64,000 nt of DNA from positions 1 to 64,000 of the forward strand of contig CAYLZE010000010.1 in the NCBI GenBank assembly GCA_964388035.1, read 5' to 3'. The notes beneath the pieces were generated by a model. That model was not told where the DNA came from, did not search any database, and saw only the letters and a program-made list of their open reading frames with translations. The stretch is from an uncultured archaeon. Its GTDB lineage: Archaea; Asgardarchaeota; Lokiarchaeia; Sigyniarchaeales; SOKP01. Position 1 is the first letter of the stretch. Each line of letters starts with the position of its first letter. Shown piece by piece: positions 5,157-45,223 of this stretch. The translations under genes were made by a program, and so were the position numbers.

Positions 5157-5276
5157 CGGGCTATAGGGGATACTCGAAAAAGGGCAATCTTCCCTCTCTT
5201 TTCGAACCCCTGACCGTCAGGTTTCTCTTACGAAAGATTAAGAGCCTGCTGCGCTACCTGCCTGCGCCAATAGCCC
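5157..5276 (-). tRNA. tRNA-Lys(CTT) with two introns: 37/38 (5223-5238, 16 nt) and T-loop 59/60 (5171-5200, 30 nt)
   Basis: Acceptor GGGCTAT/ATAGCCC, D arm GCGC/GCGC, anticodon CT-CTT-A, T stem AGGGG/CCCCT; BHB-like pairing at both insertions. Confidence 0.9.
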
Positions 5277-5499: not shown

Positions 5500-5606
5500 C
5501 GCAGATGGAGGGATTTGAACCCCCGAGCGCTCACGCGCACCGGTTTTCTCTGCTCAATGAGCACGTGCACTCAAGACCGGCGTCTTACCAGCTAGGCTAC
5601 ATCTGC
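5500..5606 (-). tRNA. tRNA-Ser(TGA) with canonical 37/38 intron (5546-5569, 24 nt)
   Basis: Acceptor GCAGATG/CATCTGC, stem CCGGT/ACCGG, long variable arm, TTCAAAT loop, discriminator G. Confidence 0.9.
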
Positions 5607-6452: not shown

Positions 6453-6566
6453 GCAAGCGTCGCTTAGCCTGGTAGAGCGCTGGATTGCTAATCCAGTGTC
6501 CACATGGATCCGTGGGTTCGAAAAGATCGTCTCTCCTCGAAGGTCTCTGAATTCCCACCGCTTGCG
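6453..6566 (+). tRNA. tRNA-Ser(GCT) with non-canonical T-loop intron (~6523-6552, 30 nt)
   Basis: Acceptor GCAAGCG/CGCTTGC, CTGGA-TT-GCT-AA-TCCAG, long variable arm, GTGGG-TTCGAA[insert]T-CCCAC. Confidence 0.88.
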
Positions 6567-28322: not shown

Positions 28323-29604
28323 TTAGCCATAATGCTTCTCTTCTTCTTGTTCTGAATCAATAGCATCTTGCTCAACATCTCTGCCCAACCACTTTTCGCT
28401 TAAAATCTCCTTGTACCATTCGTGTTGGATAATGAGGCTCATTATTTCGTATGTACCGAATAGGGATGATGGGAGATCCCAATTCGCTTGTACCGGTCCA
28501 TATGGAGGACAAACGAGCATCTCTCAGTAATCTCTCAATGGGATATACGGTAGTGTAACCGATGCCTCCCATTATTTGCATCGCATTATTTATTACTTTC
28601 CAACACGCTTCCGTGGAGAATTTTTTAGCTTCAGAAACCATTCGTCTTTGTACGCTTGGTGGTGCTCCTGCATCAATCATCCTTGCAGTATTTAAAACGA
28701 TAGAACGTGCGGCATCTAATAGGGTAATTCCCTCTGCCATATTAAAATTTACTGCCTGAAATTTTTGTATTACCTGCCCAAATGCCTTGCGTTTAGTGCT
28801 ATATTTAGCAGCTACCCTTAAACACGCTCTAGCCGTTCCCAATATGCCAGAAGCTGTTGTAAGTCTCTCGGGAACCATCATTTGATAAAATATTTTTCCT
28901 CCTGCTCCTTCTGCTAAAATAACATTCTCTTTTGGAACTTTTACGTCTTTAAACTTTAAACGCCCAGCACCCCCACCACGAGTTCCCATTAATCCATAGA
29001 GATATTCCGTGCTTACTCCTTCAGTCCTATCCACAATGAGGAGACTTAACGCATTATGAGGATCAGCTTTAGGATCCGTGTTAGTTCTAGCATACACCAA
29101 GAAAAAGTCCGCACCTTCCGCACCTACTACGAATCTTTTTTCTCCGTTCAAGATATAATGCTCTCCTTGTTTAACGGCAGTAGAAGTGGCACCGAAAAAA
29201 TCGCTTCCGCCTCGGGGTTCAGTCAGGGCTTCTGCTGTAAATTTTTCTCCTTTGAGCATTGGCACAAGATATTTTTGCTTCTGCTCTTCCGTGCCGAACA
29301 TGTTAAGGGCTTCACCGCAGATACTTACTAGAGAAAAGAGACAGCCCAGAGACATCCCCAGAACGCCAATCTCTTCTAGAGCAACTACTTCGTTTTCCCA
29401 ATTTAATCCTCTTCCTCCATATTTCTTGGGAAATCTGAGGCCAATTAGATTATGTTTTGCAAGACTTTTTAAATATTCGGTTGGGTATCGCACCTCATCT
29501 TTATCCATTTTCTTCAAGAGAGAGGGTGGTACTTCATCCCGGACGAAATTCCTAACCTCTTCTTTCAATTTACGTGTTTCTTCGCTGATTATATAATCAA
29601 ACAT
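28323..29604 (-). CDS. Acyl-CoA dehydrogenase interrupted by a 37-nt BHB intron (414 aa when spliced)
   Basis: ALTEPRGGSD, LNGEKRF, RKAFG, QIMGGIGY, RDAR; removing 28451-28487 joins the ORFs to give IWTGTNEIMSLII. Confidence 0.9.
28451..28487 (-). other. Predicted bulge-helix-bulge intron in mRNA (37 nt)
   Basis: CG-GUAC-AA^G-CGAAUUGGGA...UCCCUAUUCG-GUAC-AU^A-CG: 4-bp helix between two 3-nt bulges. Confidence 0.85.
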
Positions 29605-29763
29605 TTTTATTCTACCACAAACATTCTTGTTCTCGTTAAATAATAATATTCTTAATTGAATATTATATCTTATGGATTTCTCATGCAATATTTAGGATAA
29701 AGTGAGATAAATGCGGTGGAACTCTCCCATTTCAATCCAAGAGAAATAATAAATTCACTCGAA

Positions 29764-30945
29764 TTATTTAATTATCACGTTAAATTTTACTTTTAAATGT
29801 TTATATTTAGAATTCAAAATATCTAAAATCTCCCGGGCAAAATTTTTCAAATTCATTGCCTGTTGTGATTTTTCTTCCACTTGCTCGTGATAAAAATCAT
29901 GTATCAGGGCTCGGGTTTTTATTGGACCGTTTGCTTCTAGATATTCTTGCCAGTGAATGGAAATTTTACCTATCTCTTTTATTTTCTCGTCTGAATATTT
30001 CTTCTCATCTAGGATGAGATCATTGTATTTTTCCAAGACTTTCGCAACGCGCATGAGATGTTGGGAAATTCCTAAAGAATACCGGACTAAACTAATGAGA
30101 TTAGAGGTAGTTCTAGTACTTCTCGTATTTGCCCCTTCCTCAAGAGCTTCTATAGCCTGTTGCCACTCCCTTTCACTATCATTATTCTTTCCGTTCATTA
30201 CTATGGCCACGTTAATCATATCGCTGATATCTACGTCATGACCACGCTTAATCTTCTTGGAAAAAATATCCTTTAAGTTTGATCCTTCTAAAAAGCTTCC
30301 TGCTCCAAAATCCAGTATTTGATTTAGATTATTAGCCGCAGATAATTCCTGGTGCCTCTCTTGGTTAGTAAAGGGATCTTGCCATTTCACGCTTTTTTCC
30401 CATTCTCCCGTTTCTTTATTTTTTATAAACCCGCAATTCTTTAAAGAATAATTTAACAAGTTGACTTGAAAAGTCCAGAAATCAATATCATCAGTAAATC
30501 GTTTCCTTCTCCAATCTCTCGTGGTATATTTACCCAAATACAATTTCAAGGTTCCTCTCACTAGCGATTTTTTCCCATATTTCAAGGCGTCTTGAGCTTC
30601 CTTGCAGTAAGTATGATTGGGATCTTCTGAGCAACTTGAGAGCACATTAAGCACTTTCCGTGCTTCCTTTGCCACAACATCACAGGGGATGCTTCCATCT
30701 GAAGGATACATTCTAGATCCGCCCATCACGAAATTTTCAAATAATTCAAAATCATCCGTGGGGATATTATACCAGGGATTATTGAACATCGTGGCGCTAA
30801 AAACATATTCCGTGAATCCCCAATCATCTTTCAAGGATTCTTTGGGAATTACTTCTCTTATAGAATCTCCTTTTTTTTGGCCATCAGCTCTTTGATCCCA
30901 AATACCTTCGCTCATGAGTATTCTCCTAACGTTATATAATAGCAC
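29764..30945 (-). CDS. Hypothetical protein, possible nucleotidyltransferase fold
   Basis: RFTDDIDF (RxTxDxD-like) motif; true start probably the MSEG Met (~30915). Confidence 0.5.
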   Translation of the reverse strand: MLLYNVRRILMSEGIWDQRADGQKKGDSIREVIPKESLKDDWGFTEYVFSATMFNNPWYNIPTDDFELFENFVMGGSRMYPSDGSIPCDVVAKEARKVLNVLSSCSEDPNHTYCKEAQDALKYGKKSLVRGTLKLYLGKYTTRDWRRKRFTDDIDFWTFQVNLLNYSLKNCGFIKNKETGEWEKSVKWQDPFTNQERHQELSAANNLNQILDFGAGSFLEGSNLKDIFSKKIKRGHDVDISDMINVAIVMNGKNNDSEREWQQAIEALEEGANTRSTRTTSNLISLVRYSLGISQHLMRVAKVLEKYNDLILDEKKYSDEKIKEIGKISIHWQEYLEANGPIKTRALIHDFYHEQVEEKSQQAMNLKNFAREILDILNSKYKHLKVKFNVIIK

Positions 30946-31044
30946 TTTAAAATGAGAATTTCAATCTTATTTCCAATAAATAGGAAAAATAATAAAAAAT
31001 AATTTTTCCCAATTGAAGTTAAGTAAAAATAACACCACTTGCTC

Positions 31045-31338
31045 CTATTCCCTTAAAATACAGTTTTTTTCCAGGATGGGAACGCCCAAATCTTCCAATT
31101 TTTCGTCTACTTCAGCTCTGGAAAAGTTAAAGGCTTGAGATAAATAAGTAACTAATTTTTCTCGTTGTTCGGTAGTTATTGTTGTTAGATCCAAGTAATA
31201 GGCTTTAACTACATCTCCATTAGGGAGCACTAATTCTTGAAGCGTGGAAGATGTAACTTTTACTACCTTGCTTCCAAAAATTTCCTCAAAGACTTTCGCT
31301 CTCTCATTATCCACAATTTCTATTAAGTGATCCGGCAT
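31045..31338 (-). CDS. Hypothetical protein
   Basis: 97-aa ORF with protein-like composition. Confidence 0.65.
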   Translation of the reverse strand: MPDHLIEIVDNERAKVFEEIFGSKVVKVTSSTLQELVLPNGDVVKAYYLDLTTITTEQREKLVTYLSQAFNFSRAEVDEKLEDLGVPILEKNCILRE

Positions 31339-31875
31339 CTATTCTTATATACCCGCTTCTACCTGCTTAAATATATTTAAAAAAACGTTCCATTCATTAA
31401 AAAATTTCTGAAACGCAATTTTAAGATGTGAAAGGAAACGATGGCTCTTCAAGATTGAGTACTTTAATGAGAAAGCAATAGAAAATTCCTAAATTTAATA
31501 TATCGCGCCATTGAAATAAATTTATATCCCATGAAAGAAAATTAATTAGAGCAATATACTCATGAGATCTATCTTTCGATATTAAAATAACTAATTTGTA
31601 ATCCATTTTAAGGCAATAAGTAAACAGGATGTAGTAGTTGTCATGAATCCCTTCTGCAAGCACACGATTTAAAAAAGTGTTTATCCTAAATGTTAAATAT
31701 AACATTTTTTCTTATCTTTAAAAAATATGGATTATGAATGTCAAAATTAATTACATTTATATAACTATATTTAAATGTATACACATAAGAGTAAAAAAGA
31801 AGTTAGCGATTTGAGAAAGAAAATTCTATAGTCAGATTATTACAATAATATTTAAGATCAAACGGAGGAAGTAAA

Positions 31876-33696
31876 ATGTATTCAGAATTGAGTGACGATG
31901 AAAAACAAATGTACTTAGAAGTCCTACAAGAGTCCCCTATCATGCCCTTTTCCAATTTTGTGAGTAGGGGAGATATACCTGACAAAGTTGACATCCAACG
32001 CCCCCGAAGTTATATTGATCGGGAAGTGTATCGTTTAGTCCGTCAAACTCATCGTGATAGATCTTCCAGATTAATTCCAATCTTAGGTTCAGCAGGTTCC
32101 GGAAAGACTCATGCTTACCATTCTTTTAAAGATAAGGAAAGGGAAAATAGAAAAAAGATGGAAGAAACGGAGCAAATAGAAGAGATTGAAGTTAGTGAGT
32201 TGGAACCCGTAGACTGGACCATTGTATATGTCCCAAGTCCTCCTGCAAGTATTAGGGTTTTGCTTCATGTATACACTTGTATCATCGAAGAAGTCGGTCC
32301 CGAAATCTTGGATATGGTCTCAGATAAATTAGTGAAAGAAAAGTGGGGTGGAAAAAAAGGAGGAATTTTTCAAAAACCCAATATCGATGAAGTTATCCAA
32401 AAAGGTATTCGAGAATTCCCTGGAGTTTTTGCAGATTGCGTAAAAGCTTTAGTGACATATCAATTGGATAAAAATAAAAAAGCTCTCGCAGAGAGGTGGC
32501 TGTTAGGTGAAGATTTAGAGCCAGAAGAATTGACTGAACTAGGGATAAGTAGCGTCATTGAAGATGATGATATTTGTCTTGCCATGATAAAAATAATAAC
32601 AGACAACTTGGATCGCGTGTTAATCTTATATTTTGATGAATTAGAATCACCCTATCGGATGCTGGGAGAAGCTGCAGAGAGGAAATTTCTTGAAATTTTA
32701 AAAAGATTATATAATGAGGTTAAAGGATTAGTCATTGTTATAGCGGTTTTAAAAGAAATTTGGCCACGAATTTTAGAAATAGCAGATCCTCCCTTGCGTT
32801 CACGAATGGAACCAGAACAGGAATTAAAACCCTTTTCCTTGAATGATTTAAAAATTTTCTTTTCAAAAACCATGGAAGTGTTTTGGGACGAGAATAATTT
32901 AAATCCTCCCTTATATCCCCTTTTTCCATTAAATGAAAAGTTGATAGAAATCATCTATGAAAAAACCAAGGGAAACCCAAGAAATTCGATTAAATTATGC
33001 CGGAGATTCATAGATAAAATTGTAATGGATGAAATGACCGTAGATGAGTTATTAGAAATAGGTGCGGAGATCGAGGCTACTGCAAAACCTCCCATACTTG
33101 AGGAAGAAGAGATAATAGATTTTTCAAAGCCTAGAAAAGAAATTAGAAAAAAGATAGAAGATATTTTAGCGGAAGAAGAATATTATATCGATGTAAATCC
33201 TCAATCCGTGGCAGGTGCTGCATTAAAGACGATCATAAAGATTGGAGAAGAGAAGAAGAAGGAATTTAAGACTCAGATGGAATTTAAATTTCTTTTAGGT
33301 AAAAGACCCCAAACACTAGCCGCAATGATCGAGGCGGAAGGCAAAAAATGGGGATTAGAAATTCCTTCTATTAAAACCTTCGATCGAAGTGCTGGAGTGG
33401 CGGGTTATTATGCGGCAAAGAGATTAAAAGATGCAATAACTCAAAGTGCCATAGATTCTGCAATTCTCATCGTACCTAAAGATACGGGGGGTGCAAAATA
33501 TGAAATGATCTTGCAAAATAATCCTAACATTCACAGGGTTGAAATTGATAATACTATTGGAGAAGATTTGATCGCAAATGCTCTAAAATATCCTACAAAA
33601 GAAGGATGGGATTTAGCTCGTATAATTTTTGCTGATATAGGAGACTATGTACCCCCTGTGGAAGAATCTGCAACGGAAACTACTTCAAGTGAATAG
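31876..33696 (+). CDS. P-loop AAA+ ATPase with extra C-terminal domain
   Basis: Walker A GSAGSGKT, Walker B ILYFDE, LRSR, GNPR; GGAGG SD upstream. Confidence 0.8.
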   Translation: MYSELSDDEKQMYLEVLQESPIMPFSNFVSRGDIPDKVDIQRPRSYIDREVYRLVRQTHRDRSSRLIPILGSAGSGKTHAYHSFKDKERENRKKMEETEQIEEIEVSELEPVDWTIVYVPSPPASIRVLLHVYTCIIEEVGPEILDMVSDKLVKEKWGGKKGGIFQKPNIDEVIQKGIREFPGVFADCVKALVTYQLDKNKKALAERWLLGEDLEPEELTELGISSVIEDDDICLAMIKIITDNLDRVLILYFDELESPYRMLGEAAERKFLEILKRLYNEVKGLVIVIAVLKEIWPRILEIADPPLRSRMEPEQELKPFSLNDLKIFFSKTMEVFWDENNLNPPLYPLFPLNEKLIEIIYEKTKGNPRNSIKLCRRFIDKIVMDEMTVDELLEIGAEIEATAKPPILEEEEIIDFSKPRKEIRKKIEDILAEEEYYIDVNPQSVAGAALKTIIKIGEEKKKEFKTQMEFKFLLGKRPQTLAAMIEAEGKKWGLEIPSIKTFDRSAGVAGYYAAKRLKDAITQSAIDSAILIVPKDTGGAKYEMILQNNPNIHRVEIDNTIGEDLIANALKYPTKEGWDLARIIFADIGDYVPPVEESATETTSSE

Positions 33697-33777
33697 TATC
33701 TTTACTCAATTAAAATCAATGATTAATATCGTCCTCTAATTTTATTTTCAAAACCATTTATCTAATTCATAGCTAGA

Positions 33778-34512
33778 TCAGGAAAATTCCCGTACGAATA
33801 GGGTCACTCCCCATGCATAGAAAATTAATCCTGTAGTTTTCAAGATCATCGAAAGAAAATAAATTATGATTCGTGTTCCTTGAAAACCAGAAATTTCCAC
33901 CAAGAAAGCTAGTAACGATTCTATCAATATATTGGCACCTATTGCATATACTATGACGCCAACTGCAATGATATAAGCTGGTTTGCGATACTCGGGTGAT
34001 TTATAGCCAATATACAAAAATAATACCGGAATGATGATGGCTGTTACATTTGCTAAGAATAATAAAGAAGAAATGATCTGAAAATCAGAGGGACTTATTA
34101 CGGGATAAACCAATATTATTATTGCAGCTATTCCCATGATATAAGAAGGAACTCCTTTCAATTTGAAATCAATAATTTTACGATCTACCGTGAATACTAC
34201 TATCGTATAGCCAATAACACTGATAAATGCAGCTATCTTCCAATATAGATAATTAGGAAACAAATAATACGTGGTTTCATCAAAAAGTGTGAGATAAAAG
34301 TCGAAATAAAACCAAAATAAACGTGCTATGAAAATACAAATCATTAAAATAAATACACTTGTCGCAAATCCAAAGGAATAACTCCCAGTTTTTTTCTTTC
34401 TCTCACGAATCTTTATACCCAAATAGAGAGCTAAGGAAAATTTGACTGCTAAAAGGAAAATAGTTAAACCAAAAAAAATTTTGTATTCAAGAGAATCGGG
34501 AGTGAGAATCAT
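33778..34512 (-). CDS. 7-TM membrane protein
   Basis: Seven hydrophobic segments; paralog of 34624..35346. Confidence 0.75.
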   Translation of the reverse strand: MILTPDSLEYKIFFGLTIFLLAVKFSLALYLGIKIRERKKKTGSYSFGFATSVFILMICIFIARLFWFYFDFYLTLFDETTYYLFPNYLYWKIAAFISVIGYTIVVFTVDRKIIDFKLKGVPSYIMGIAAIIILVYPVISPSDFQIISSLLFLANVTAIIIPVLFLYIGYKSPEYRKPAYIIAVGVIVYAIGANILIESLLAFLVEISGFQGTRIIIYFLSMILKTTGLIFYAWGVTLFVREFS

Positions 34513-34623
34513 AATTAGTTAAGCAATACCAAACAATAAAAAATTTATGGAGTTTGAATCAGTTTCATTTGAAGATTGAACAAAAAAGTAGAAATTAAGA
34601 ATTTAATTAGTTTTTTATCGAAT

Positions 34624-35346
34624 TTATGAAATAAATTTTACCACACCGACTGAGACCAAAGTTAGACCTGAAATCTTCCCTACGAAAAACAATGCAAATA
34701 TTAAAATTTGAATATCATTCCCATACGCTTTTCTGAGTGGATCTATGACTGATTGTATCACTAAAGCACTTCCAATCGCAAAAAAGATTATTCCAAAAGC
34801 GATCATAAAGGCGTATCGACGGACTCCCGGGGTTTTTATCCCTATATAAAAAAATATGATCGGTAAAATGAAAGCGGCTATCAAGCCTAACCCTCCAATG
34901 GTGGAAAGTACAATGAAATCTTCTGGAGTACTCACCGGATAAAAAGCGATTAATATCATTCCTGCTAACACGATATAGGCGAAAATTCCCTTGAATTTAA
35001 AGTTTAATACTTTTCGATCCATAGTAAATAATATGAAAAAATAACCAAGCATGCTAATATCCATTGCAAATCTCCATAAAATCACGTTTGGTTCAATGTG
35101 AAACGTAGCAGGATTAAATTTCGTGAAATAAAAATCATAAAAGAGGAATAGAAACCGCGAGATAAAGAGACACAACATCATGAGAAACATCCCAAAAATG
35201 AAATCGAGAGAATATTTTCCCGTTATTTGTTTCCTTTCTCTAACCTTACTCAAGAGATAAATTGAGAGAATGCCCTTGTAAATCAGTAAGATAATCGTCA
35301 AAATCAAAAACAAGTTAAATTCGAAAGTCCCTTCAGTTAATGCCAT
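34624..35346 (-). CDS. 7-TM membrane protein
   Basis: Seven hydrophobic segments; shared RLF/RFL..DFY, W, DRK and FKxKG motifs. Confidence 0.75.
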   Translation of the reverse strand: MALTEGTFEFNLFLILTIILLIYKGILSIYLLSKVRERKQITGKYSLDFIFGMFLMMLCLFISRFLFLFYDFYFTKFNPATFHIEPNVILWRFAMDISMLGYFFILFTMDRKVLNFKFKGIFAYIVLAGMILIAFYPVSTPEDFIVLSTIGGLGLIAAFILPIIFFYIGIKTPGVRRYAFMIAFGIIFFAIGSALVIQSVIDPLRKAYGNDIQILIFALFFVGKISGLTLVSVGVVKFIS

Positions 35347-35407
35347 TTTTAAATATCCCCAATTGTTTAATTGTTAAACTAGATCTCTTTTTATACTATT
35401 TAAAGGT

Positions 35408-36331
35408 TTAGATGATCTGATGGGATATTTCTTTTAATTTACTATCTAAATTAATTAATTCCTTTACATGTTTTGATATTCTTTCTAAATTCCGTTTCAT
35501 TTCGGTTAATATCTCGACCTGTTCATTATTTTCTAAAGCATTCGCAATCTGAATAATGGTATCAATTGTGGGGGTAAGAGATTCATACAATTCCAGGGGT
35601 TTAATATCGATATCATCTATTATCTTGTTCATTTCCTTAATTAAACTTTCTCGCTTTTTTAAAAGGTTCGGAATGTTGCCCACACGTTCTGCTTTATTTT
35701 CTAAAAAAAATACAATTTCATTTTCTTGAATAGATCCCGCCAATTTAGCTGCATTCAAATAACTCTTTCTTGCTTTTTTATAAGCCCCTTGATGATAAAA
35801 TGCTTCGGCTTCTTTCACTTCAGTGGAAAGCTTTTCCGGTATTTCCTCACCTAAATCAATCAGTTCCCGTGCCTCTTGAAGTTTTCCCTCATCTAACATT
35901 TTTTTGGTCTTTTCATTTATGGTCTCAATGATAAGCTTTGGTTCCTTTAGTTTATCCATTAAAGTCAAAATGGAACTTAAGATTTCTTTTAACACGTTCT
36001 TCATTTTGACTTTATCTGTTGTAAAATTTTCAATGACTTCATGCTCGCTTTTTTCGAACATGCTCTTTAAGGACACGATATCTTCTTCTTCCTTGAGAAT
36101 GAATCCCAGGAACAAGTTTTTTTTCTCTAAAGTATCGCTGTTAATCTTGCTTGAATAATACTTATTATTTTCATTTTGAGTAGTAGCATCCACGAATTCT
36201 TTTTTAACATGTTTTTCAACAAAAATCTGTAGCATTTCTTTACTGATTTTTTCTTGACCCAAATAATATTCTGCAATTAAATTCGGTCCAAAAGATTTAT
36301 CTATCTCGTAAAGGAAAACTCCAATCGGCAT
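35408..36331 (-). CDS. Longin/uDENN-like N-terminal domain + helical region
   Basis: GVFLYEIDKSFGPNL pattern (D-x3-GP) followed by helical repeats. Confidence 0.5.
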   Translation of the reverse strand: MPIGVFLYEIDKSFGPNLIAEYYLGQEKISKEMLQIFVEKHVKKEFVDATTQNENNKYYSSKINSDTLEKKNLFLGFILKEEEDIVSLKSMFEKSEHEVIENFTTDKVKMKNVLKEILSSILTLMDKLKEPKLIIETINEKTKKMLDEGKLQEARELIDLGEEIPEKLSTEVKEAEAFYHQGAYKKARKSYLNAAKLAGSIQENEIVFFLENKAERVGNIPNLLKKRESLIKEMNKIIDDIDIKPLELYESLTPTIDTIIQIANALENNEQVEILTEMKRNLERISKHVKELINLDSKLKEISHQII

Positions 36332-36630
36332 TTTTTTTCATTCAGTTTTTTAATGAATATTTATTTCAAACCTTAAATAACTGTAATCACGAATTAATTA
36401 TAAAACATTTAGGTTTGAATTAATAATTACATGATAAATAGTATCTACTTCTTTATTATATAAATTAGATCCTAGCGATGATTCGATTATATAAAGATAT
36501 CATGATATCCCGCCATACCTTACAGTATCATGTTAATTGAGGACTTATTATCAAATTAATAAGCAAGGTTTTTTAGTTCTCCTATAATCCCACTTAATCA
36601 ATCAAGTTTAAATTTAAATCATTAATATAG

Positions 36631-37557
36631 ATGGAAAAAATGACTACCATTGAAAATACATATTGTGAAGCATTTGAAGGTCTCTGCGTTCAATTATTAG
36701 TCACGGCAGAAGATAAACCGTTTTTAGAGAGAGCCATTAATTCCTTTACTGCACTTCCCTCAACAGTTTTTGGAGATGCGGAAGGTGGGATTGTAAAATA
36801 CTTAAGTGAAAAGGAAACCATTGATGGACGAATTGGTGCTATAGTTCAATTATGGGTCACGGGTACCGGTAAAAAAGCTAAAGCTAAGTTTTATGAACAA
36901 TTAGGACGCAGGTTGCGACAAGGGATCTTGGTTGTTCCCACCACTGCTGTCTATGATGCTTATCCCTTCGCCACTGACACTAAATTCGATATGATGAATA
37001 ATGTGGGACACTGTGGAGATGGCCATGAATGGATTCTTGAAAAATATAATAGGAAGTTAATTAACGTTCCCATCATGATGGGACATGACTTCCTCATAGA
37101 GAAAGAATTATCCCATGCTCCGGGGGTAATGGGGGGAAATTTATGGCTTTTTTGTGATTCTCTCGAAGCAGGGATAAGAGTAGGACGAAAAGCAGTTAAA
37201 ATTATAGCGCAAATTGAGAATGCTTGTACCACATTCGATGTGTGTTCTGCAGGATCTAAGCCAGAGACAAATTTTCCCGAAATTGGTCCTTCCACTAATC
37301 ATCTTTATTGTCCGACTCTAAAAGGAAAATTACCTCCTGGAGAATTTAAAGTACCTGAAGGAGTTAAATCCATACCGGAAATCGTCTTTAATGCCTTGAC
37401 GATTGATGCAATAAAAGAAACGATGAAAAAAACTATTAAAGGCATAATAGATATGAAAGGATTAATTAAAATTTCAACCGGAAATTATGGGGGAAAACTT
37501 GGCAAGCACCGAATTTATCTGAATGAATTAAAATTAGATCCCGCTTATTTCAAATGA
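36631..37557 (+). CDS. ftr: Formylmethanofuran-tetrahydromethanopterin formyltransferase
   Basis: TYCEAF, DGRIG, PTTAVY, GGN, STNHLYCPTL, GNYGGKLG. Confidence 0.92.
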   Translation: MEKMTTIENTYCEAFEGLCVQLLVTAEDKPFLERAINSFTALPSTVFGDAEGGIVKYLSEKETIDGRIGAIVQLWVTGTGKKAKAKFYEQLGRRLRQGILVVPTTAVYDAYPFATDTKFDMMNNVGHCGDGHEWILEKYNRKLINVPIMMGHDFLIEKELSHAPGVMGGNLWLFCDSLEAGIRVGRKAVKIIAQIENACTTFDVCSAGSKPETNFPEIGPSTNHLYCPTLKGKLPPGEFKVPEGVKSIPEIVFNALTIDAIKETMKKTIKGIIDMKGLIKISTGNYGGKLGKHRIYLNELKLDPAYFK

Positions 37558-37580
37558 TTATTTTCCTTACTCTATTTCGT

Positions 37581-38246
37581 TTAAATTAATTTTTCTTCCT
37601 TGATATTTTCAAATCCTGATAGATATTTGTTATAAATCTTATATTTCTCCGAAAATACTTTATCAATTTCGTCTAAAGGTAAATCTGCGTGAGATCCACG
37701 ATCATTTACGTATTCTCCAAATAAATTTCCCTCGATATCACGAGGTGGAAAAACAGCATCATGTTCACCATCAAATTCCACCATGGGAAGAAATCCCCCT
37801 CTAATAGCGGTGTCTTTATCAAACGATGGAGTCAATTTAATCCATTTATTCCCTAAATAAAATTCACTAAAGCCATGGTAATACATCACATTCGTTCCCA
37901 TGAAATCAATGACTTTCTGAGACACTTTATGGTTGATTAAGTCAACTAAATGAATCCTTGCAGGAATCCCTATTATTCTTGCCAACGAGGATAATAATAT
38001 GGATTTTGAAACACAAAATCCTTCCCCTTTCTTCAAAATTTTACTTGCAATAAAATTGTTCTTAATTTTAGGGACAAATAACCTCATGTTATATTTAATT
38101 TCATCGCGCACGAAATAAAATAGGTTAATTGCTTTACTCTTATTAGATTGACCATTCTCTGTGAGCTCAAACGCTTTCTGACGCAGCTTATTATTTTCTA
38201 TATTAAAAAATGTAGTCGGTTGAAGATAAACTTTAAACTCAGACAT
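37581..38246 (-). CDS. Transglutaminase-like protein
   Basis: FYFVRDEIKY, GFCVSKS, GIPAR, HG..E. Confidence 0.85.
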   Translation of the reverse strand: MSEFKVYLQPTTFFNIENNKLRQKAFELTENGQSNKSKAINLFYFVRDEIKYNMRLFVPKIKNNFIASKILKKGEGFCVSKSILLSSLARIIGIPARIHLVDLINHKVSQKVIDFMGTNVMYYHGFSEFYLGNKWIKLTPSFDKDTAIRGGFLPMVEFDGEHDAVFPPRDIEGNLFGEYVNDRGSHADLPLDEIDKVFSEKYKIYNKYLSGFENIKEEKLI

Positions 38247-38331
38247 TAGAATATAAAATTTTTTATTATTTTATTAGGTTTGGAATAAGTTTTAGATTAA
38301 TAAAAGAAAAGATTGATCGATAAAAAGTTAC

Positions 38332-38511
38332 TTATTCAGAGTCTTCGGAAAAATCATCCGGGTCTTCAGGGGAATCATCATCAGTATCAATAAATTGATC
38401 AAATTCCTCAATATCATGGAAAAGACAACATCCATTAGATATTCTATATTCCTCCATATCATTTCTATCGGAATTATTTCTTCTTTCTCTTATCTTTTCA
38501 ATATCTAACAT
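38332..38511 (-). CDS. Small acidic protein (59 aa), not in the ORF track
   Basis: MLDIEKIRERRNNSDRNDMEEYRISNGCCLFHDIEEFDQFIDTDDDSPEDPDDFSEDSE; co-oriented with neighbours. Confidence 0.5.
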   Translation of the reverse strand: MLDIEKIRERRNNSDRNDMEEYRISNGCCLFHDIEEFDQFIDTDDDSPEDPDDFSEDSE

Positions 38512-38698
38512 TATTTAACTCATCCTTTCTTATTTATGATCTTTTTTCAAAGCTAAAATATAAAATGAAGTATATGAGAGTTATTCTAACAGAATTAAAG
38601 ATTTCGGGAAAAAAACTTGAAACGCTATAAGTGAGGATGGTTTTCTACTTTCAGACCATAAGTGAAAAATAGTTTTTCATCCCTTTATAAGTATCATT

Positions 38699-39334
38699 TC
38701 ATATTTGAAATTTAGAATAAAGATTTTTATAACCTTCAACGAAAATTCTTTTAATCTCCTCGATCGGAACATCAGAGTAATTTCCACGATCTTTAATGTA
38801 TTCTACCAATAAATTACCTTCGGTATCATGTTTAGAGAGCATGGCATCATGTTCCCCATCGAATTCTGCATTCGGCAAATATCCTGCTTTTTCTGCTGTA
38901 GTTTGATCAAAAACCGGGGTCAGTTTAATCCATCTGCCATCTATTAGCAATTCACTGTATCCGTGACAAAGGAAGGCATTCGTGCCCATTAAATCCACGA
39001 CTTTCTTCGAGACTTTATGATTTATAATATCTACCATGTGAATGGAAGCAGGGACATTCACTGCTCGAGCCAAAGTTGACAGTAAAACCGCCTTCGACAT
39101 GCAGAACCCATTTTTCCTTCTCAATGTGGTTGATGCTTTTAGATTTGTTTCATGTTGGGGAATATAGGTATACATGTTATATTTTATCTCATCTCTAACG
39201 AAATAAAATAATGAAATGGCTTTTTCTTTATTAGATTTGCACCCTTCAGTAATTTCCATTGCCTTTTTTTTAACAAGTTTTTTATCAAAATCCAAAAATT
39301 CTGTTGGTCTTAAAAATTCATTTAAATCAGGCAT
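38699..39334 (-). CDS. Transglutaminase-like protein
   Basis: GFCMSKA, CHGYSE. Confidence 0.85.
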   Translation of the reverse strand: MPDLNEFLRPTEFLDFDKKLVKKKAMEITEGCKSNKEKAISLFYFVRDEIKYNMYTYIPQHETNLKASTTLRRKNGFCMSKAVLLSTLARAVNVPASIHMVDIINHKVSKKVVDLMGTNAFLCHGYSELLIDGRWIKLTPVFDQTTAEKAGYLPNAEFDGEHDAMLSKHDTEGNLLVEYIKDRGNYSDVPIEEIKRIFVEGYKNLYSKFQI

Positions 39335-39383
39335 AATTTTATCAAACTGCTTTTAAAAGTTAATTTTTACCTCTATCTATAAG

Positions 39384-40037
39384 TTAATTCTTACTTTTGA
39401 AAGGTTTATTATTGAATCCTTTTTCAATCACGTGCTTGTATAACTCATTGATATCCCTTTCAATTTCTTGATAAGGTAATTCTGTATGAGAGCCTCTATC
39501 TTTGAGATATTCAACGAATTTATCTCCCTTATCATTAAAAGAAGCGAGAATCGCGTCATTCTCGCCATCGAACTCCACGATGGGATAACCTGCCCTTAAA
39601 GATGTCTGCTTGTCAAATGCAGGTGTAACTTTCACCCATTTTCCCTCAAGATATAATTCGCTATATCCATGATGATAGAATATCTTCATCCCTAAATAAT
39701 CAATAACTTTTTGGGGGATTAAATGATTGATGATATCTGCCATGTGAACCCGAGCGGGAATATCTACGGAACGAGCAAACGCACATAGCAAAACCGCTTT
39801 CGATACGCAAAACCCATATCCCCTCCGCAACGTCACGCTTGCTTTAAAATTACTTTTTAGCATGTAATAGGACGCCATGTTATATTTTATCTCATCCCGC
39901 ACCCAATAAAAAAGAGCAATCCCCTTTTCCTTCTCAGTGGAAAGGTATTTCGTAATTTCAAGAGCCGCATTTTTCACATTTTTTTTATTGAAATCTAGGA
40001 ATTCCGTGGTTTGTAAATAAGGATTTAACTTTTCCAT
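39384..40037 (-). CDS. Transglutaminase-like protein
   Basis: GFCVSKA, HHGYSE. Confidence 0.85.
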   Translation of the reverse strand: MEKLNPYLQTTEFLDFNKKNVKNAALEITKYLSTEKEKGIALFYWVRDEIKYNMASYYMLKSNFKASVTLRRGYGFCVSKAVLLCAFARSVDIPARVHMADIINHLIPQKVIDYLGMKIFYHHGYSELYLEGKWVKVTPAFDKQTSLRAGYPIVEFDGENDAILASFNDKGDKFVEYLKDRGSHTELPYQEIERDINELYKHVIEKGFNNKPFKSKN

Positions 40038-40123
40038 GAGGTTATAATAAGAATAATTAAAGGATGAGAATCATGGATTCTTGATAAAGTATTGGCTTAA
40101 GATGGATTAATAACATGTTAAAA

Positions 40124-40504
40124 TTAAAGGGAAATCTGAGGGTTGGCCAATCCTAAGGCTTTATAAATGTTCCGTATTAACTTTTCATTACTAAAGGGTT
40201 TCACCTTAAAAGATAATGCGCCAATTGACTTAGCGTATTTTTTAATACCTTCATCTCCACTCGCGAATATTATTTTTGCTTTTTCATCCCTTTTTAAAAT
40301 TTCTTCCGCTGCTTGCATGCCGCTCATTATGGGCATGCGATGATCCATTATTATCACGTCTGGTCTTTTATTAAACTTTTCAAACATCGAAACCGCTTCT
40401 TCTCCATTAGATGCAATTCCGATTATATTGAATCCTGCAGAAGATAAAATTTTATAGAGCTCCTGCAATGAGATCTCATCTTCTACTATAAAAATTGATG
40501 CCAT
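40124..40504 (-). CDS. Single-domain response regulator (REC)
   Basis: IVEDE, IIMDHRMP, KPF. Confidence 0.92.
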   Translation of the reverse strand: MASIFIVEDEISLQELYKILSSAGFNIIGIASNGEEAVSMFEKFNKRPDVIIMDHRMPIMSGMQAAEEILKRDEKAKIIFASGDEGIKKYAKSIGALSFKVKPFSNEKLIRNIYKALGLANPQISL

Positions 40505-42156
40505 TATACATCCTCCGGCAACAATATGACGAATTTACTTCCTTTTTGGTAATCATCAGGAAATCTATTTTCCACCCATATTTTTCCATTGAACACGTTT
40601 AATATTTTCTTAACTGTTATTAATCCCATTCCCATTCCTTTTGAATACGATTTTTTCGAAATTTCACCTTGAAAGAGTTGCTGTTTCATGGAATCAGGGA
40701 TGCCAATGCCATTATCGCAAAATTCAATTTCTAACCATGAATTATTTGCTTCTTTTCTTTTTTTCATGGTAATGATTATTTCTTTTTGGCTACTTTCATT
40801 GTAAATAATAGCATTTATTAAAATATTCTCGAACACGTCTAGAAGAAATTCGTTTGCTCTTATATTGTCATTTTTTATTTCTTTATTGATCTTGATGAGA
40901 ATATCCTGTTCTGAATAAGTCTTTTTTACATATTTGATAGCATTATTTAAAATAGCAGTAAGATCAATTGTATATAATTTCTGTTGCTGCTCTTCAACTT
41001 TTGATAATTTACGGACATTTGAAACAAGTTTTGCTCCCCGATTGATCTGTTCATCAACAATTTCATAGAGCTCTGTAATTCTGGTATCTGATTTTACATT
41101 CTTACTAAAACTTTTAAGTAACTCCACGGCGGAATTAATGTTCTGAAGAACATTATTAATATCATGCATGAAAATGTCCTTGTATAATTCAGTTCTATCG
41201 TAAGCAATTTGGCATGCCTTCTCAGATTGTTTTAATGATTCCAACATTTTACTATTATGAAGTGAAATGGCAGCGAGTTCTGAAAATGCGGAAGCCAGTT
41301 CAAGATCCTGACTGTTAAACCCTCCCTCTTTATTCGCAAGACCCATGATCCCGAATGTTTTACCCTCCAATTTCAAAGGCGCAAATAACACGTTATTTAA
41401 AATGACATGACCTTTTGGCATGAACTTTTTCCACGTGCTATTCATGAAGTCATTGTCATGCACTGCTTTTCCCTTGCTATATGCCTCCGCCCTTAATCCT
41501 CGAATAGGCATGGGGAGGCTAGGGTCCACCGTGCAAGGTAATCCTCCCGCATCTAAAAAAAGTAATTCATTTTCTGCCCCATCTTCGGATAATAATGCTA
41601 CATATCCCGAAGTTGCTCCGCTCAACTTCTTACAAGAATCAAAAATAGCTCGCGCGGCTTCATTAAAATCTTTATACTGTAAAACTAATTTAGTAGCCAT
41701 TAATAATGAATTTACTTCTCTTTCATGTTTTTCTGACGTTTCAAGAGTTTTTTGTAACTTTTTTAAACTAAGTTGATATTCAATAAGCAATTTCAATCTA
41801 TCGGTAATTTCCTTCAATAGAGAATCTTCTTCCGGAGAAAAAGGACGATTTTCATCATAGAAAACCTCGATCTTCAACTCATCCTGCCCTATATCCGTTT
41901 TAACCATCTTTTTCCAGGGTGTTTCATGATACTTTTCCGTTTTATACGTGTTTTTATCCCATGTTATTCTTAGGGAAATTAATTCTGGATATTGAAATCC
42001 TGATGGAATTACTTGGAGAACGTCTTTAATAAAATCCTCTATGGTTAATTTTCTATTGATTATATCCGTTGTAATCCTATATAAACATTCCAACTTCTTT
42101 ATCTTTGTAGCTTGTTGGTCTTCTATTCCTTCTAATTCATTTTTTGAATTTTCCAT
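40504..42156 (-). CDS. GAF-domain sensor histidine kinase
   Basis: GAF (LFAPL...GLANK), HDINNVLQ, NILINA, DNGIGI, GMGMGL; start placed at MENSK. Confidence 0.9.
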   Translation of the reverse strand: MENSKNELEGIEDQQATKIKKLECLYRITTDIINRKLTIEDFIKDVLQVIPSGFQYPELISLRITWDKNTYKTEKYHETPWKKMVKTDIGQDELKIEVFYDENRPFSPEEDSLLKEITDRLKLLIEYQLSLKKLQKTLETSEKHEREVNSLLMATKLVLQYKDFNEAARAIFDSCKKLSGATSGYVALLSEDGAENELLFLDAGGLPCTVDPSLPMPIRGLRAEAYSKGKAVHDNDFMNSTWKKFMPKGHVILNNVLFAPLKLEGKTFGIMGLANKEGGFNSQDLELASAFSELAAISLHNSKMLESLKQSEKACQIAYDRTELYKDIFMHDINNVLQNINSAVELLKSFSKNVKSDTRITELYEIVDEQINRGAKLVSNVRKLSKVEEQQQKLYTIDLTAILNNAIKYVKKTYSEQDILIKINKEIKNDNIRANEFLLDVFENILINAIIYNESSQKEIIITMKKRKEANNSWLEIEFCDNGIGIPDSMKQQLFQGEISKKSYSKGMGMGLITVKKILNVFNGKIWVENRFPDDYQKGSKFVILLPEDV

Positions 42157-42430
42157 AAAAAAAACCTCTCTTAATGCATTGATTTTGCTCATTTCAATTG
42201 TGGAAGTAATTAAATCAATCAATAAGAACCATTTATTTAAAAAACTTTTTAGAGCAATTCAAAAATAATGTTCTTATAATATATTATGCAAAATAAATTC
42301 GTTTTAACATATTTTTGCATTTCTTACTATGTTATAATTCCATCAAAAATTTAGAAGGGATTAAAAATTATAATCAACTTTTGAATAAATTAAATACATT
42401 AAATAAAAAAATCAAAAAAAAGGATGAAAA

Positions 42431-43697
42431 TTATATTTTTGAAGCTATTAAATCAATGAGATCAATAACTTCGATTTTACTTCTTATTTCTGGTCCCATT
42501 TCCTCATATGCGTCCTTTAAATTACCAATACAAAACGGACAACTCGTAGTTAAAATGTCTGCCCCGGATTCCACGGCTTCCTTGATTCTTTCTTTAGAGA
42601 TTTCTATTGCTAATTCGGGAAATTCGCTTTTCACACCACCACCAGCTCCACAACACCACGCATTTTTTCGATTTCTCCGCATTTCTACCAATTCCACTCC
42701 GGGTAATTTACCAATTACTTCTCGGGGAATCTCATATAAATCCATGTGACGCCCTAAATGACAAGGATCATGATACGTGAGAAGCTTCTTTTCCCCTTGT
42801 TCTTGCTTAAACGTGAGTTCATTGTTGTTTAAGATGTCCATTAAAACCTCAGTAATATGCTTAACCTCAAAGGGTAACTCTTTACCGATAATTTCGGGAT
42901 AATCTTTCTTGATCGTTCGATAACATCCCGCACAAGCCGTAAAAACCGTTTTCGCACCCATTTTTTCAAATAATTCGATATTGTGTCGCACGAGATCATT
43001 AATGGAATCATAATCGCCAATTCTCATTCCAATGGAGCCGCAGCACCATTCCTCTTTCGAGAGAGCAATGTCTTTTCCACTTGCTAACAGAATCTTCATC
43101 ATGCTTTTTAACGTTTCTTGTTGTCTCAATGGCATGGTACATCCCGCGAAAAATACAAGATCGCCTTTCTCCTTGAGGATAGAAAAATCCTTTGCCCATT
43201 CAAATTTTTTATCATAATCTTCTCCGTACGGATTTTTCATGGAATCTTCCTTCATATAATTGATTAAATTAACATGTTTATCAATCGGAGCGAATCCTGC
43301 GGCAACCAAGTCCCTGCGCAAGGCATCCCACACTTTGAAATGATCAATCCATTTTGATGTATTGAGGACAATATTATCATTGTGCGTTTCATGGCAAACC
43401 TCCGTACAATTCGCGCATTCGGTACATTGATAAACAAATTCTGCCAATTCCTTGCTTAAAGGTAATTTGCCCTCCAATACGCTTTTTAGAATGTTCATCC
43501 TTCCCCGGGCAAAATAAATCTCGAATCCCTCTTCATTTTTCGCTTCTTTCACCGGACATGTTAAATATCTTCCTACCGCAGGTCTAATAGAAAAGCCACA
43601 ATCTCCACAGCCCTTTTGCAGTCTAGAATAGATTTCTAAAACTTATACAAGACATTATGGCTTTCCACTCTTTCCTCAAGTTTTTTAATTCGCTCAT
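42431..43697 (-). CDS. GlcF/GlpC-like Fe-S oxidoreductase (ferredoxin + 2 CCG domains) interrupted by a 31-nt BHB intron (411 aa when spliced)
   Basis: CTECANC, WCCG, YHDPCHLGR, CCGAGGG; ATG at 43697 lies 2 nt after the upstream stop; removing 43614-43644 gives MSELKNLRKEWKAIMSCMGCGDCG. Confidence 0.88.
43614..43644 (-). other. Predicted bulge-helix-bulge intron in mRNA (31 nt)
   Basis: GUC-UUGU-AU^A-AGUUUUAGAA(aucua)UUCUAGACU-GCAA-AA^G-GGC. Confidence 0.82.
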
Positions 43698-43699
43698 TT

Positions 43700-45223
43700 T
43701 TATTTATCCCCCCAAAAATTGAATTTACCTCTACTTAATATATGCTTTGGATCTAGGGTTTTCTTCACTTCTGCTAAAAACTTGTAGTATTCTGGAACAT
43801 ATGCATCGATATCGACCATGAGCCGGGAAGCAAATTCCCCCATCATGTACCATTCCACACCCCATTTAGTTACCATTTCTAAAAAGGACTTCCATAATTT
43901 CAAGTCCAGGGTTTCAAATTCTTCATGAATTTCTTCATTGTAATAGCTTCCATAAGTTGTAAATCCGCAAGTTAATTCTACATTGCAACCATCAATTAAT
44001 AATATAGGGCCACTACCAGAAATGGGGCGCTGACCGGTGATATTGGTAAATACTTGCATCTCTGCATTATGTTCCATGTCCCATTGATCAATTGCATCCA
44101 AAATCTTAGGATATTCATTTATGGGTGTAAAGCATTCAGCGGTGCAAGGCTCTAAGGCGGGAAACAAATTCCAGAGGTTATGATAAAACTGCCAGTGCCC
44201 TTGTTCAACGTAATGCCATTTTGCGATATTACCATCATCAATTTCTGGCCCCAACACTTCAGATTTATTTTCCAAAAATATTTTATCCAATTGTTTTATT
44301 TTCTCCTCTAGTTCGGCTTCTGAATTTGCTTCCACGGTATAAAACATAATGCCTCTTTTTTTCTTAAGATTTTCCCACAAAGGAAACATGCCTTGTTGGC
44401 ATCCAATCCTAACAATTATGTCATACATGTACATTAAATCATACACGTCAATTCCTGCATGTCTAACATCCGAGAAGATCTTGGAGGAGACTTCTCTATC
44501 TTTCCTAGGTAAAAAGAAAGTCTTATAATTTGCAAATCCTGGTCGCGGAAATACTTGAAGGGTAATCTGGGTTTTCACTCCTAAGATGCCATTATCTCCA
44601 CAGAAAAGGCCATTTAAATCTGGTCCATTTCCACATCGATTAAAATGATTCTTGGTGTACTTATTTGCTTTTGAACCCGTTTCTATGATTTCTCCCGTGG
44701 GCAAAACTACTTGGAGTCCCACTAATTGATTCGTACACGATCCATATTTAGCGCAACCTCCTCCTCCCACAGAGTGATGAGATACTCCACCACCAACAGA
44801 CGCAGTCATGCCAGAACCTGGACCCATGCAGCCCGTATATAATCCATAGTGGCATAGATATTCGTTTAATTTACCCCAAGAGATGCCCGCTTGTACTGTT
44901 ACTACTAAATTATCTTGATCAAAATTTACAATGTTATCCATTCTTTTCATATCAAGTACTATACCCCCATCTTTTACGGGTTTACTACCACCGAATTCAC
45001 AATCACCGCCGCCTCGTGGCACTACGGGGACGTTCTCTTGATTTGCTATTTTTATTATCTCGGAAATCTCTTCAGCATTTTTCGGTCTAATGACGATATC
45101 AGGAACTCCTTGCAAGACTGGGTCCACATTCCTCGAATATGCGTGGCGAACAATCAGGTTGTCTGAAAGAAATTTATTGGTAACTACCTTTTCTAACTTT
45201 TTGTATACTTCTGACATTTTCAT
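43700..45223 (-). CDS. FAD-binding oxidoreductase (GlcD/VAO family)
   Basis: PDIVIRP, VVPRGGG, GLQVVLPTGE, GILGV, LDPKHIL. Confidence 0.88.
   Translation of the reverse strand: MKMSEVYKKLEKVVTNKFLSDNLIVRHAYSRNVDPVLQGVPDIVIRPKNAEEISEIIKIANQENVPVVPRGGGDCEFGGSKPVKDGGIVLDMKRMDNIVNFDQDNLVVTVQAGISWGKLNEYLCHYGLYTGCMGPGSGMTASVGGGVSHHSVGGGGCAKYGSCTNQLVGLQVVLPTGEIIETGSKANKYTKNHFNRCGNGPDLNGLFCGDNGILGVKTQITLQVFPRPGFANYKTFFLPRKDREVSSKIFSDVRHAGIDVYDLMYMYDIIVRIGCQQGMFPLWENLKKKRGIMFYTVEANSEAELEEKIKQLDKIFLENKSEVLGPEIDDGNIAKWHYVEQGHWQFYHNLWNLFPALEPCTAECFTPINEYPKILDAIDQWDMEHNAEMQVFTNITGQRPISGSGPILLIDGCNVELTCGFTTYGSYYNEEIHEEFETLDLKLWKSFLEMVTKWGVEWYMMGEFASRLMVDIDAYVPEYYKFLAEVKKTLDPKHILSRGKFNFWGDK

Follow-up and report, generated by a model that had tools for sequence, protein, structure and literature searches.

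Our data point toward an archaeon in which the enzymes of tRNA splicing very probably remove introns from many mRNAs as well, a conclusion drawn from genome sequence. The DNA under study, called the window here, comprises all 64,000 nucleotides at positions 1 to 64,000 of contig CAYLZE010000010.1 (G000:C10:1-64000) of an uncultured Loki-type Asgard archaeon of the order Sigyniarchaeales, whose metagenome-assembled genome (MAG), G000, has a size of 5.47 Mb on 211 contigs, with a completeness of 96.7% and a contamination of 7.3%. Close homologues come mostly from Promethearchaeota/Loki, and a gene tree groups them with the G000 genes. Two genes of the window, encoding an acyl-CoA dehydrogenase (ACAD) and a 4Fe-4S/CCG oxidoreductase (GlcF/TfrB-like; the Fe-S gene), are each interrupted by a short insert with the features of archaeal bulge-helix-bulge (BHB) introns, i.e., a 4-bp helix with 3-nt bulges (or a relaxed version thereof) whose structure is conserved over its sequence. 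Genome-wide, 17 such introns were validated. The evidence comprises the inserts and their boundaries, covariation of their pairing partners, purifying selection on both exons, and the genes for the splicing enzymes.

Two BHB introns in the window

The two interrupted genes are organized as follows:

28323..28450, minus strand: ACAD exon 2, 41 codons plus stop, 90% identity to the intron-less orthologue of the same-genus genome G001
28451..28487, minus strand: BHB intron 1, 37 nt, codon phase 1, near the 3' end of the ACAD gene
28488..29604, minus strand: ACAD exon 1, with Acyl-CoA_dh_N, _M and _1 matches; the C-terminal model ends at 137/150
42431..43613, minus strand: exon 2 of the Fe-S gene
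43614..43644, minus strand: BHB intron 2, 31 nt, codon phase 2, with an in-frame stop, within the first CxxCxxC
43645..43697, minus strand: exon 1 of the Fe-S gene, 17 codons to the first cluster cysteine

The preliminary description of the window had proposed two unrelated BHB introns, both of length 3n+1, and this holds: cuts at the BHB positions restore the exact peptide of intron-less orthologues in both genes, the lengths are 37 and 31 nt, the sequences are unrelated, and neither has a second copy in G000. Each contains two 3-nt bulges with A as the first base. An Rfam search gave no match at either intron, and GT-AG ends are absent.

Intron 1 has the central helix GTAC:GTAC (4/4 pairs), the bulges AAG and ATA, and an inner hairpin of −10.3 kcal/mol; its flanks form a near-direct repeat of a palindromic exon stretch. 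The ACAD frame likely starts at ATG 29604, and the open frame extends to TTG 29688. Relatives were compared gene by gene at the best 30 loci, the G000 locus included. For ACAD, which gave 41 matches, the insert is absent from 28 of these 30 loci (one of them partly N-masked), which read the predicted spliced motif W-T-G-T-[NST]-E. G001 is among the genomes free of the insert, and a comparison of exon 2 with its orthologue there gave a nonsynonymous divergence (pN) of 0.04 and a synonymous divergence (pS) of 0.73. Furthermore, G022, which belongs to another genus, carries a diverged 34-nt BHB insert with a different, fully paired stem at the same bond (L009).

Intron 2 has the helix TTGT:GCAA (4/4), the bulges ATA and AAG, and an inner hairpin. 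Inserts at this site were found in 8 of the 30 loci. A pattern search of GTDB genomes, in which the exon flanks and the first bulge were specified and neither a 3' helix nor a stem was required, returned 19 loci, of which 18 have the complete central helix (4/4) and all 19 a hairpin. Seven of these matches duplicated known loci, giving a total of 20 distinct, diverged introns of 29 to 34 nt at this one site. In this set (n = 20), the central helix was paired to 0.99 compared to 0.90 in partner-shuffled controls, the first four inner pairs to 0.90 compared to 0.63, and the hairpin energy was −5.5 compared to −2.0 with swapped halves. Directly upstream lies an uninterrupted gene for a GlcD-like FAD oxidoreductase (43700..45223, minus strand), which probably shares one operon with the Fe-S gene.

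Introns across the genome and its relatives

An intron was counted as validated if, after its removal by BHB cuts, length and peptide agreed exactly with those of intron-less orthologues, and this was so for all 17 introns of G000. They have lengths of 28 to 37 nt and are given below with contig, strand, first intron base and length.

ACAD: C10, minus, 28487, 37 nt
Fe-S: C10, minus, 43644, 31 nt
Second ACAD: C4, plus, 56313, 31 nt
Zn-ADH: C50, plus, 19070, 29 nt
Roadblock: C66, plus, 9415, 32 nt
FGGY kinase: C149, minus, 3790, 30 nt
POR beta: C1, plus, 39352, 30 nt
NadE: C45, plus, 19136, 30 nt
pyrG (CTP synthase): C37, plus, 632, 31 nt
AMP phosphorylase: C32, minus, 9854, 30 nt
SCP2: C89, minus, 18588, 28 nt
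Ubiquitin E2: C38, plus, 34333, 30 nt
Thiolase: C109, minus, 9379, 29 nt
Thiolase: C65, plus, 26311, 30 nt
Creatininase: C50, plus, 21722, 29 nt
dnaG: C50, plus, 290, 37 nt
NAD-dependent epimerase: C5, minus, 29417, 30 nt

The Pfam halves abut across the introns of the kinase (FGGY_N 1–78 and 79–245) and of NadE (NAD_synthase 4–143 and 144–242), and nearly so in the creatininase (2–100 and 104–238) and the epimerase (GDP_Man_Dehyd 1–143 and 146–332). All 17 introns disrupt translation if they are not spliced, by a frameshift or by a stop within the intron. In each of the 15 genes tested, both exons have a pN far lower than their pS. There is no second full copy of pyrG or AMP phosphorylase in G000, so the interrupted pyrG is the sole gene for CTP synthase. 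No intron sequence family is shared within the genome, and no intron has a second copy. Two traits of the window introns that had been taken as characteristic turned out not to define the set: seven introns are of length 3n, six of 3n+1 and four of 3n+2, and the hosts are not confined to redox enzymes, since they also include pyrG, dnaG, nadE, E2, roadblock and SCP2.

Since the tuned scan described below missed the dnaG and epimerase introns (the latter was found by a looser scan) and misplaced the register of the creatininase intron (35 nt; 29 nt by orthologues), 17 is a floor, and the total in G000 is perhaps 20 to 30. The suggestion that many such introns exist genome-wide, hidden among apparently broken genes, is borne out in part, by the 17 introns and by six further sites in relatives; the number is modest, at 17 of ~5,000 open reading frames (ORFs), and broken genes are not mostly introns. 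When 4,997 ORFs were compared with paralogues without reference to the motif, 54 loci appeared split or frameshifted; 24 of them are plain shifts of −2 to +4, insert estimates of 28 to 40 nt were obtained for five, and three of the five turned out to be new introns. A paralogue test of spliced junctions was swamped by self-matches and weak after correction. A clear enrichment of BHB motifs over controls was seen only with a filter tuned on known cases, which gave 27 candidates in the true geometry compared to 5, 10, 12, 5 and 5 for five decoys, i.e., an excess of ~20.

Among the candidates that we rejected, the unspliced frame at C8:68985 (30 nt, in frame) looks like normal coding sequence, and C8:91045 and C3:82553 are unsupported. 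Tuned-scan candidates at the large and small primase subunits, proteasome beta, transaldolase and a Rag-like GTPase are operon junctions or true gene starts. A broken gene of the metallo-beta-lactamase fold (C114:1047; G000:C114:300-1500, L373) is better read as a plain +1 frameshift. The rnhB, cbf5 (on C23), gatE and pcm motifs lie in uninterrupted frames in G000.

In relatives, introns at the same site were found per 30 best loci in 3 cases for NadE, 8 for AMP phosphorylase, 7 for pyrG, 2 for E2 and 15 for dnaG. POR beta and roadblock gave 2 of 30 each, with one locus without anchor in either gene and, for POR beta, one more insert at another site. The FGGY and epimerase introns are common to G000 and G001 (five genomes tested). 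To these come six sites seen in relatives only, i.e., phosphofructokinase, second sites in POR beta, pyrG and E2, and two thiolase sites, giving at least 23 sites across the family. When insertions that break the ORF were called irrespective of motif across the collected loci, 49 of 54 unique events were BHB-like on the coding strand compared to 4 of 54 on the antisense strand. The central helix is complete (4/4) in 35 of these events, the outer helix is often relaxed, and the lengths peak at 30 to 31 nt. The five events that are not BHB-like are four single-support calls at gene starts and one pyrG insert of imperfect register.

Covariation extends to other sites. The central helix was paired to 1.00 in AMP phosphorylase (n = 8; 0.94 in partner-shuffled controls) and in dnaG (n = 14; 0.90), and the inner stem of pyrG covaries; NadE is uninformative. 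In roadblock, the helix is GAGT:ACTC in G000 and GACC:GGTT in G069, i.e., the intron side follows the changes on the exon side. On gene trees, presence is scattered for the Fe-S gene (10 changes, at least 6 of them forced; 89 of 500 shuffles as low, with two wrongly extracted rows left out) and for AMP phosphorylase (6 changes; 229 of 500 as low, with two rows dropped as too short), and clustered for pyrG (3 changes; 0 of 500 as low). The short frame that marks the AMP phosphorylase intron occurs only in the family of G000 (f1), among the 150 matches listed (62 more are not in that list) in a phylum sample of 221 genomes.

Several loci of the host genes show further peculiarities. POR beta of G036 (C6, L183) is interrupted 1 to 2 codons from the G000 site, and the anchorless locus of G030 (C199, L179) has a short open frame. 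In E2, exon 2 is broken around residue 65 in four genomes, and a fifth genome carries an internal stop (G008:C183, G015:C1, G012:C35, G003:C79, G067:C201), a probable third intron site. In the creatininase orthologue of G022 (C354, L336), the match to exon 2 starts no earlier than residue 48, in a frame of 157 amino acids; this gene possibly carries a further break. The roadblock/LC7 protein (G000:C66:9168-9620; L215-L244) is unusually conserved, with 91 to 99% identity over its first 82 residues family-wide. Most of the 30 dnaG loci (L340-L369; G000:C50 ~180-290) have no ATG, GTG or TTG at the expected start; the frame opens with an Ile codon just past a GAGGTG-like stretch, which suggests ATA or ATT as the start codon.

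A number of observations weigh against the reading as spliced mRNA introns. Single folds are weak compared to shuffles (z = −1.9 for intron 1 and −1.3 for intron 2), and the minimum-energy fold of intron 2 differs from the full BHB; the two window introns are judged real because of the orthologue comparison, not because of single folds. Raw BHB counts show no excess of the true over the mirror geometry, and neither do untuned BHB and ORF-rescue filters (one further run gave a small excess). The excess in the tuned scan rests on a filter fitted to known cases, and of the 38 candidates listed, 15 were validated, several others being gene starts or operon junctions. C8:68985 shows that strong BHB shapes arise by chance in coding sequence. 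The inner stem of dnaG does not covary above shuffles, the pyrG introns have only three of four central pairs in all seven copies, and the inner stem of the creatininase intron has no stable fold. The loci examined were picked since G000 had a candidate there, and the genomes of relatives are not independent, so that shuffle values are not probabilities and contrasts are inflated. Finally, G000 is a MAG with contaminating sequence. Its short contigs C197, C200 and C204 have a G+C content far above the genome mean of 33% in the stretches inspected and were a source of false candidates; they are likely part of the contamination of ~7%.

Splicing machinery and rival explanations

As the preliminary description had noted, the genes for the splicing endonuclease and the ligase are outside the window; they are located on C146 and C33 (a pair of EndA genes) and on C23 (RtcB). 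In the alpha subunit of EndA the Tyr/His/Lys triad is present, and its alignment with 3p1z_B (E = 1e-35) extends over the L1/CSL loop; the other paralogue (beta) is without the His, and RtcB is intact. According to Kaneta 2018 (PMC5829648), the Asgard EndA is an (alpha-beta)2 enzyme with L1, a type able to cut relaxed motifs. Hence, G000 encodes an EndA predicted to cut relaxed motifs, together with a ligase.

The same genome has tRNA introns at unusual positions. The window contains three intron-bearing tRNA genes:

5157..5276, minus strand: tRNA-Lys(CTT), with a canonical intron of ~16 nt and a T-loop BHB intron of 30 nt
5500..5606, minus strand: tRNA-Ser(TGA), with a canonical intron of 24 nt
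6453..6566, plus strand: tRNA-Ser(GCT), with a T-loop BHB intron of 28 nt

Reading of the sequence confirmed four tRNA introns, two of them non-canonical and in T-loops. The T-loop introns are relaxed and, at 28 to 30 nt, occur in the genome that has the mRNA introns; the two genes carrying them were missed by ARAGORN and Rfam (for tRNA-Lys, at default settings). A repeated palindromic TCGA borders the T-loop intron of tRNA-Lys, which resembles in this the ACAD, pyrG and dnaG introns with their palindromic helices. Elsewhere in the window, positions 37581-40037 hold three tandem, similar ORFs of 211 to 221 amino acids with a conserved C-x-x-K-[SA] stretch, putatively transglutaminase-like, and positions 31045-31705 hold two short ORFs (97 and 94 amino acids) flanked by conserved genes.

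In our model, the pre-mRNA would fold into a minimal or relaxed BHB, with a 4-bp helix between exon end and intron end, a short hairpin, and two 3-nt bulges that nearly always have A first. A broad-specificity (alpha-beta)2 EndA would cut after the second base of each bulge and RtcB would ligate the exons, so that full-length protein would be made only from the spliced message, and unspliced messages would frameshift or stop inside the intron. At 28 to 40 nt, with no Rfam match at the two window sites and no GT-AG ends, the inserts do not fit group I or group II introns, which have a ribozyme core, or spliceosomal introns. The ACAD, pyrG and dnaG sites have a palindromic central helix, and the 3' end of the intron repeats the exon end there; a short duplication could thus create the motif, while most other sites have inverted matches only. 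A single origin is probable for each site, followed by repeated precise loss or by transfer between lineages through recombination. In a small and related sample, all 15 distinct 3n introns from the anchor search contain a stop (9.8 expected from shuffles), and in-frame BHBs that lack a stop show no enrichment (161 compared to 146, 149, 95 and 157). Unspliced messages therefore seem to be selected to fail rather than to yield extra residues.

A reading as pseudogenes broken by small hairpin elements, or as assembly artefacts, would draw on the MAG origin of G000 and on the fact that most other frameshifts are plain shifts of 1 to 2 nt. It is largely refuted, and we consider it extremely improbable: many genomes, each assembled independently, have diverged inserts at the same sites, purifying selection acts on both exons, the only pyrG copy is among the interrupted genes, and there is no element family and no second genomic copy of any intron. 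Translational recoding, in which the ribosome would hop, or frameshift and read through, past the hairpin with no cleavage of the RNA, is just as improbable. Each insert is a hairpin, with the stop usually at or near its 5' end, and the bypassing in gene 60 of phage T4 is loosely similar. However, the lengths at one site span all three frame classes (29 to 34 nt in the Fe-S gene, 29 to 40 nt in dnaG), the boundaries lie within codons, in phases 1 and 2, the take-off codon does not match the landing codon, and conservation lies in the precise 4-bp helix and its 3-nt bulges.

Two further proposals are compatible with splicing by EndA and RtcB and concern its use and its origin. The introns could form a regulated switch that gates genes by condition, as IRE1 does for HAC1/XBP1. 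The disruption of translation by all 17 unspliced introns and the stops in 3n introns would fit such a switch, and in Haloferax a BHB intron in the 5'-UTR of HVO_1309 influences the expression of this gene (PMC7714728). However, the host genes have no evident common pathway, the stop bias is explained equally well by selection against proteins with 10 extra residues in an active site, the motif itself forces three of the 15 stops, and the sequences are related. Moreover, close relatives are intron-free with no apparent substitute, only 2 to 15 of 30 loci carry the intron per site, and this patchy presence speaks against an indispensable regulatory role. We regard the switch as decidedly unlikely and see in the introns, on the best reading, passengers that are tolerated rather than demonstrated regulators. 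As to origin, the introns could be remnants driven by homing endonucleases that targeted conserved motifs, the nuclease having been lost or never carried, which is conceivable, if doubtful. The three sites measured are at the 85th to 98th percentile of local conservation, and presence is scattered on two of the gene trees; conserved sites are also those that our method sees best and where imprecise loss would be lethal, and the pyrG introns are clustered. The introns are too short to encode a nuclease, no LAGLIDADG match was found in G000 in a search confined to that genome and to PF14528 and PF00961, and the dnaG site has no long, ORF-bearing version (30 loci, up to 1,200 nt; other sites were covered only to 90 to 200 nt).

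Known systems and significance

In kind, the introns of G000 are those of cbf5, a pre-mRNA intron that Watanabe in 2002 and Yoshinari in 2006 reportedly treated as well; they are new in scale and targets, and the set is real, family-wide and modest in number. Yokobori 2009 (PMC2738675) describes the cbf5 intron of Desulfurococcales/Sulfolobales as splitting a catalytic codon, with spliced cDNAs that matched the BHB prediction. Both are short BHB or relaxed-BHB introns in coding sequence, at a catalytic motif in cbf5, cut (in G000, by prediction) between bulge bases 2 and 3, in hosts with a hetero-oligomeric EndA, and lost in some lineages. In contrast, cbf5 is one gene with one site, compared to 17 unrelated genes in G000 and a family total of at least 23 sites with very patchy presence, and its splicing was demonstrated by cDNA, whereas that in G000 is predicted. 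The intron in the 5'-UTR of HVO_1309 of Haloferax volcanii is likewise an mRNA substrate of EndA, but it is outside the coding sequence, in a single gene and in a host with another EndA type; the report on it gives cbf5 as the sole further case in mRNA (Schwarz 2020, PMC7714728). Non-canonical tRNA introns of Asgard archaea (bioRxiv 10.64898/2026.10.13.758758) share BHB boundaries, repeated gains, an (alpha-beta)2 EndA, an unsettled route of arrival and the lack of in vivo proof of splicing; they differ in being confined to tRNA genes, and the main text of that preprint contains the terms 'mRNA' and 'cbf5' 0 times. Term look-ups in PMC12397907 and PMC13149111 gave no additional mRNA case. In the literature searched, mostly outside subscription journals, cbf5 is the one archaeal coding sequence known with an endonuclease-spliced intron, and no archaeon is described as having several BHB introns in coding sequences. 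HAC1/XBP1 splicing (PMC13149111) likewise uses a non-spliceosomal protein endonuclease, RtcB-type ligation and a change of frame on splicing, but with another nuclease and recognition motif and a dedicated, regulated target.

A more far-reaching proposal is a standing, spliceosome-free layer of mRNA splicing, in which tens of genes per genome, including essential and eukaryote-like ones (ubiquitin E2, roadblock), would depend on EndA and RtcB, unspliced messages would be selected to be untranslatable, and the splicing rate would couple these genes to tRNA-splicing capacity or stress. Splicing of many genes is the very probable part of this proposal, and its regulated version we consider unlikely; if true, it would be a prokaryotic parallel to regulated non-spliceosomal splicing. 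A link to intron evolution before the spliceosome is an analogy only, given that the one intron traced across the phylum, in AMP phosphorylase, was confined to this family among the matches listed, and a descent of spliceosomal introns from BHB introns in mRNA is not implied by our findings.

For genome annotation, the consequence is immediate. In such genomes, pyrG, dnaG, nadE, E2 and roadblock would be called truncated or missing, which would skew metabolic reconstructions and counts of eukaryotic signature proteins. In sum, a prokaryote without a nucleus very probably tolerates many mRNA introns in its housekeeping genes, and the competition of splicing with coupled translation, as well as the rise, spread and loss of short introns, can now be tested in this family.

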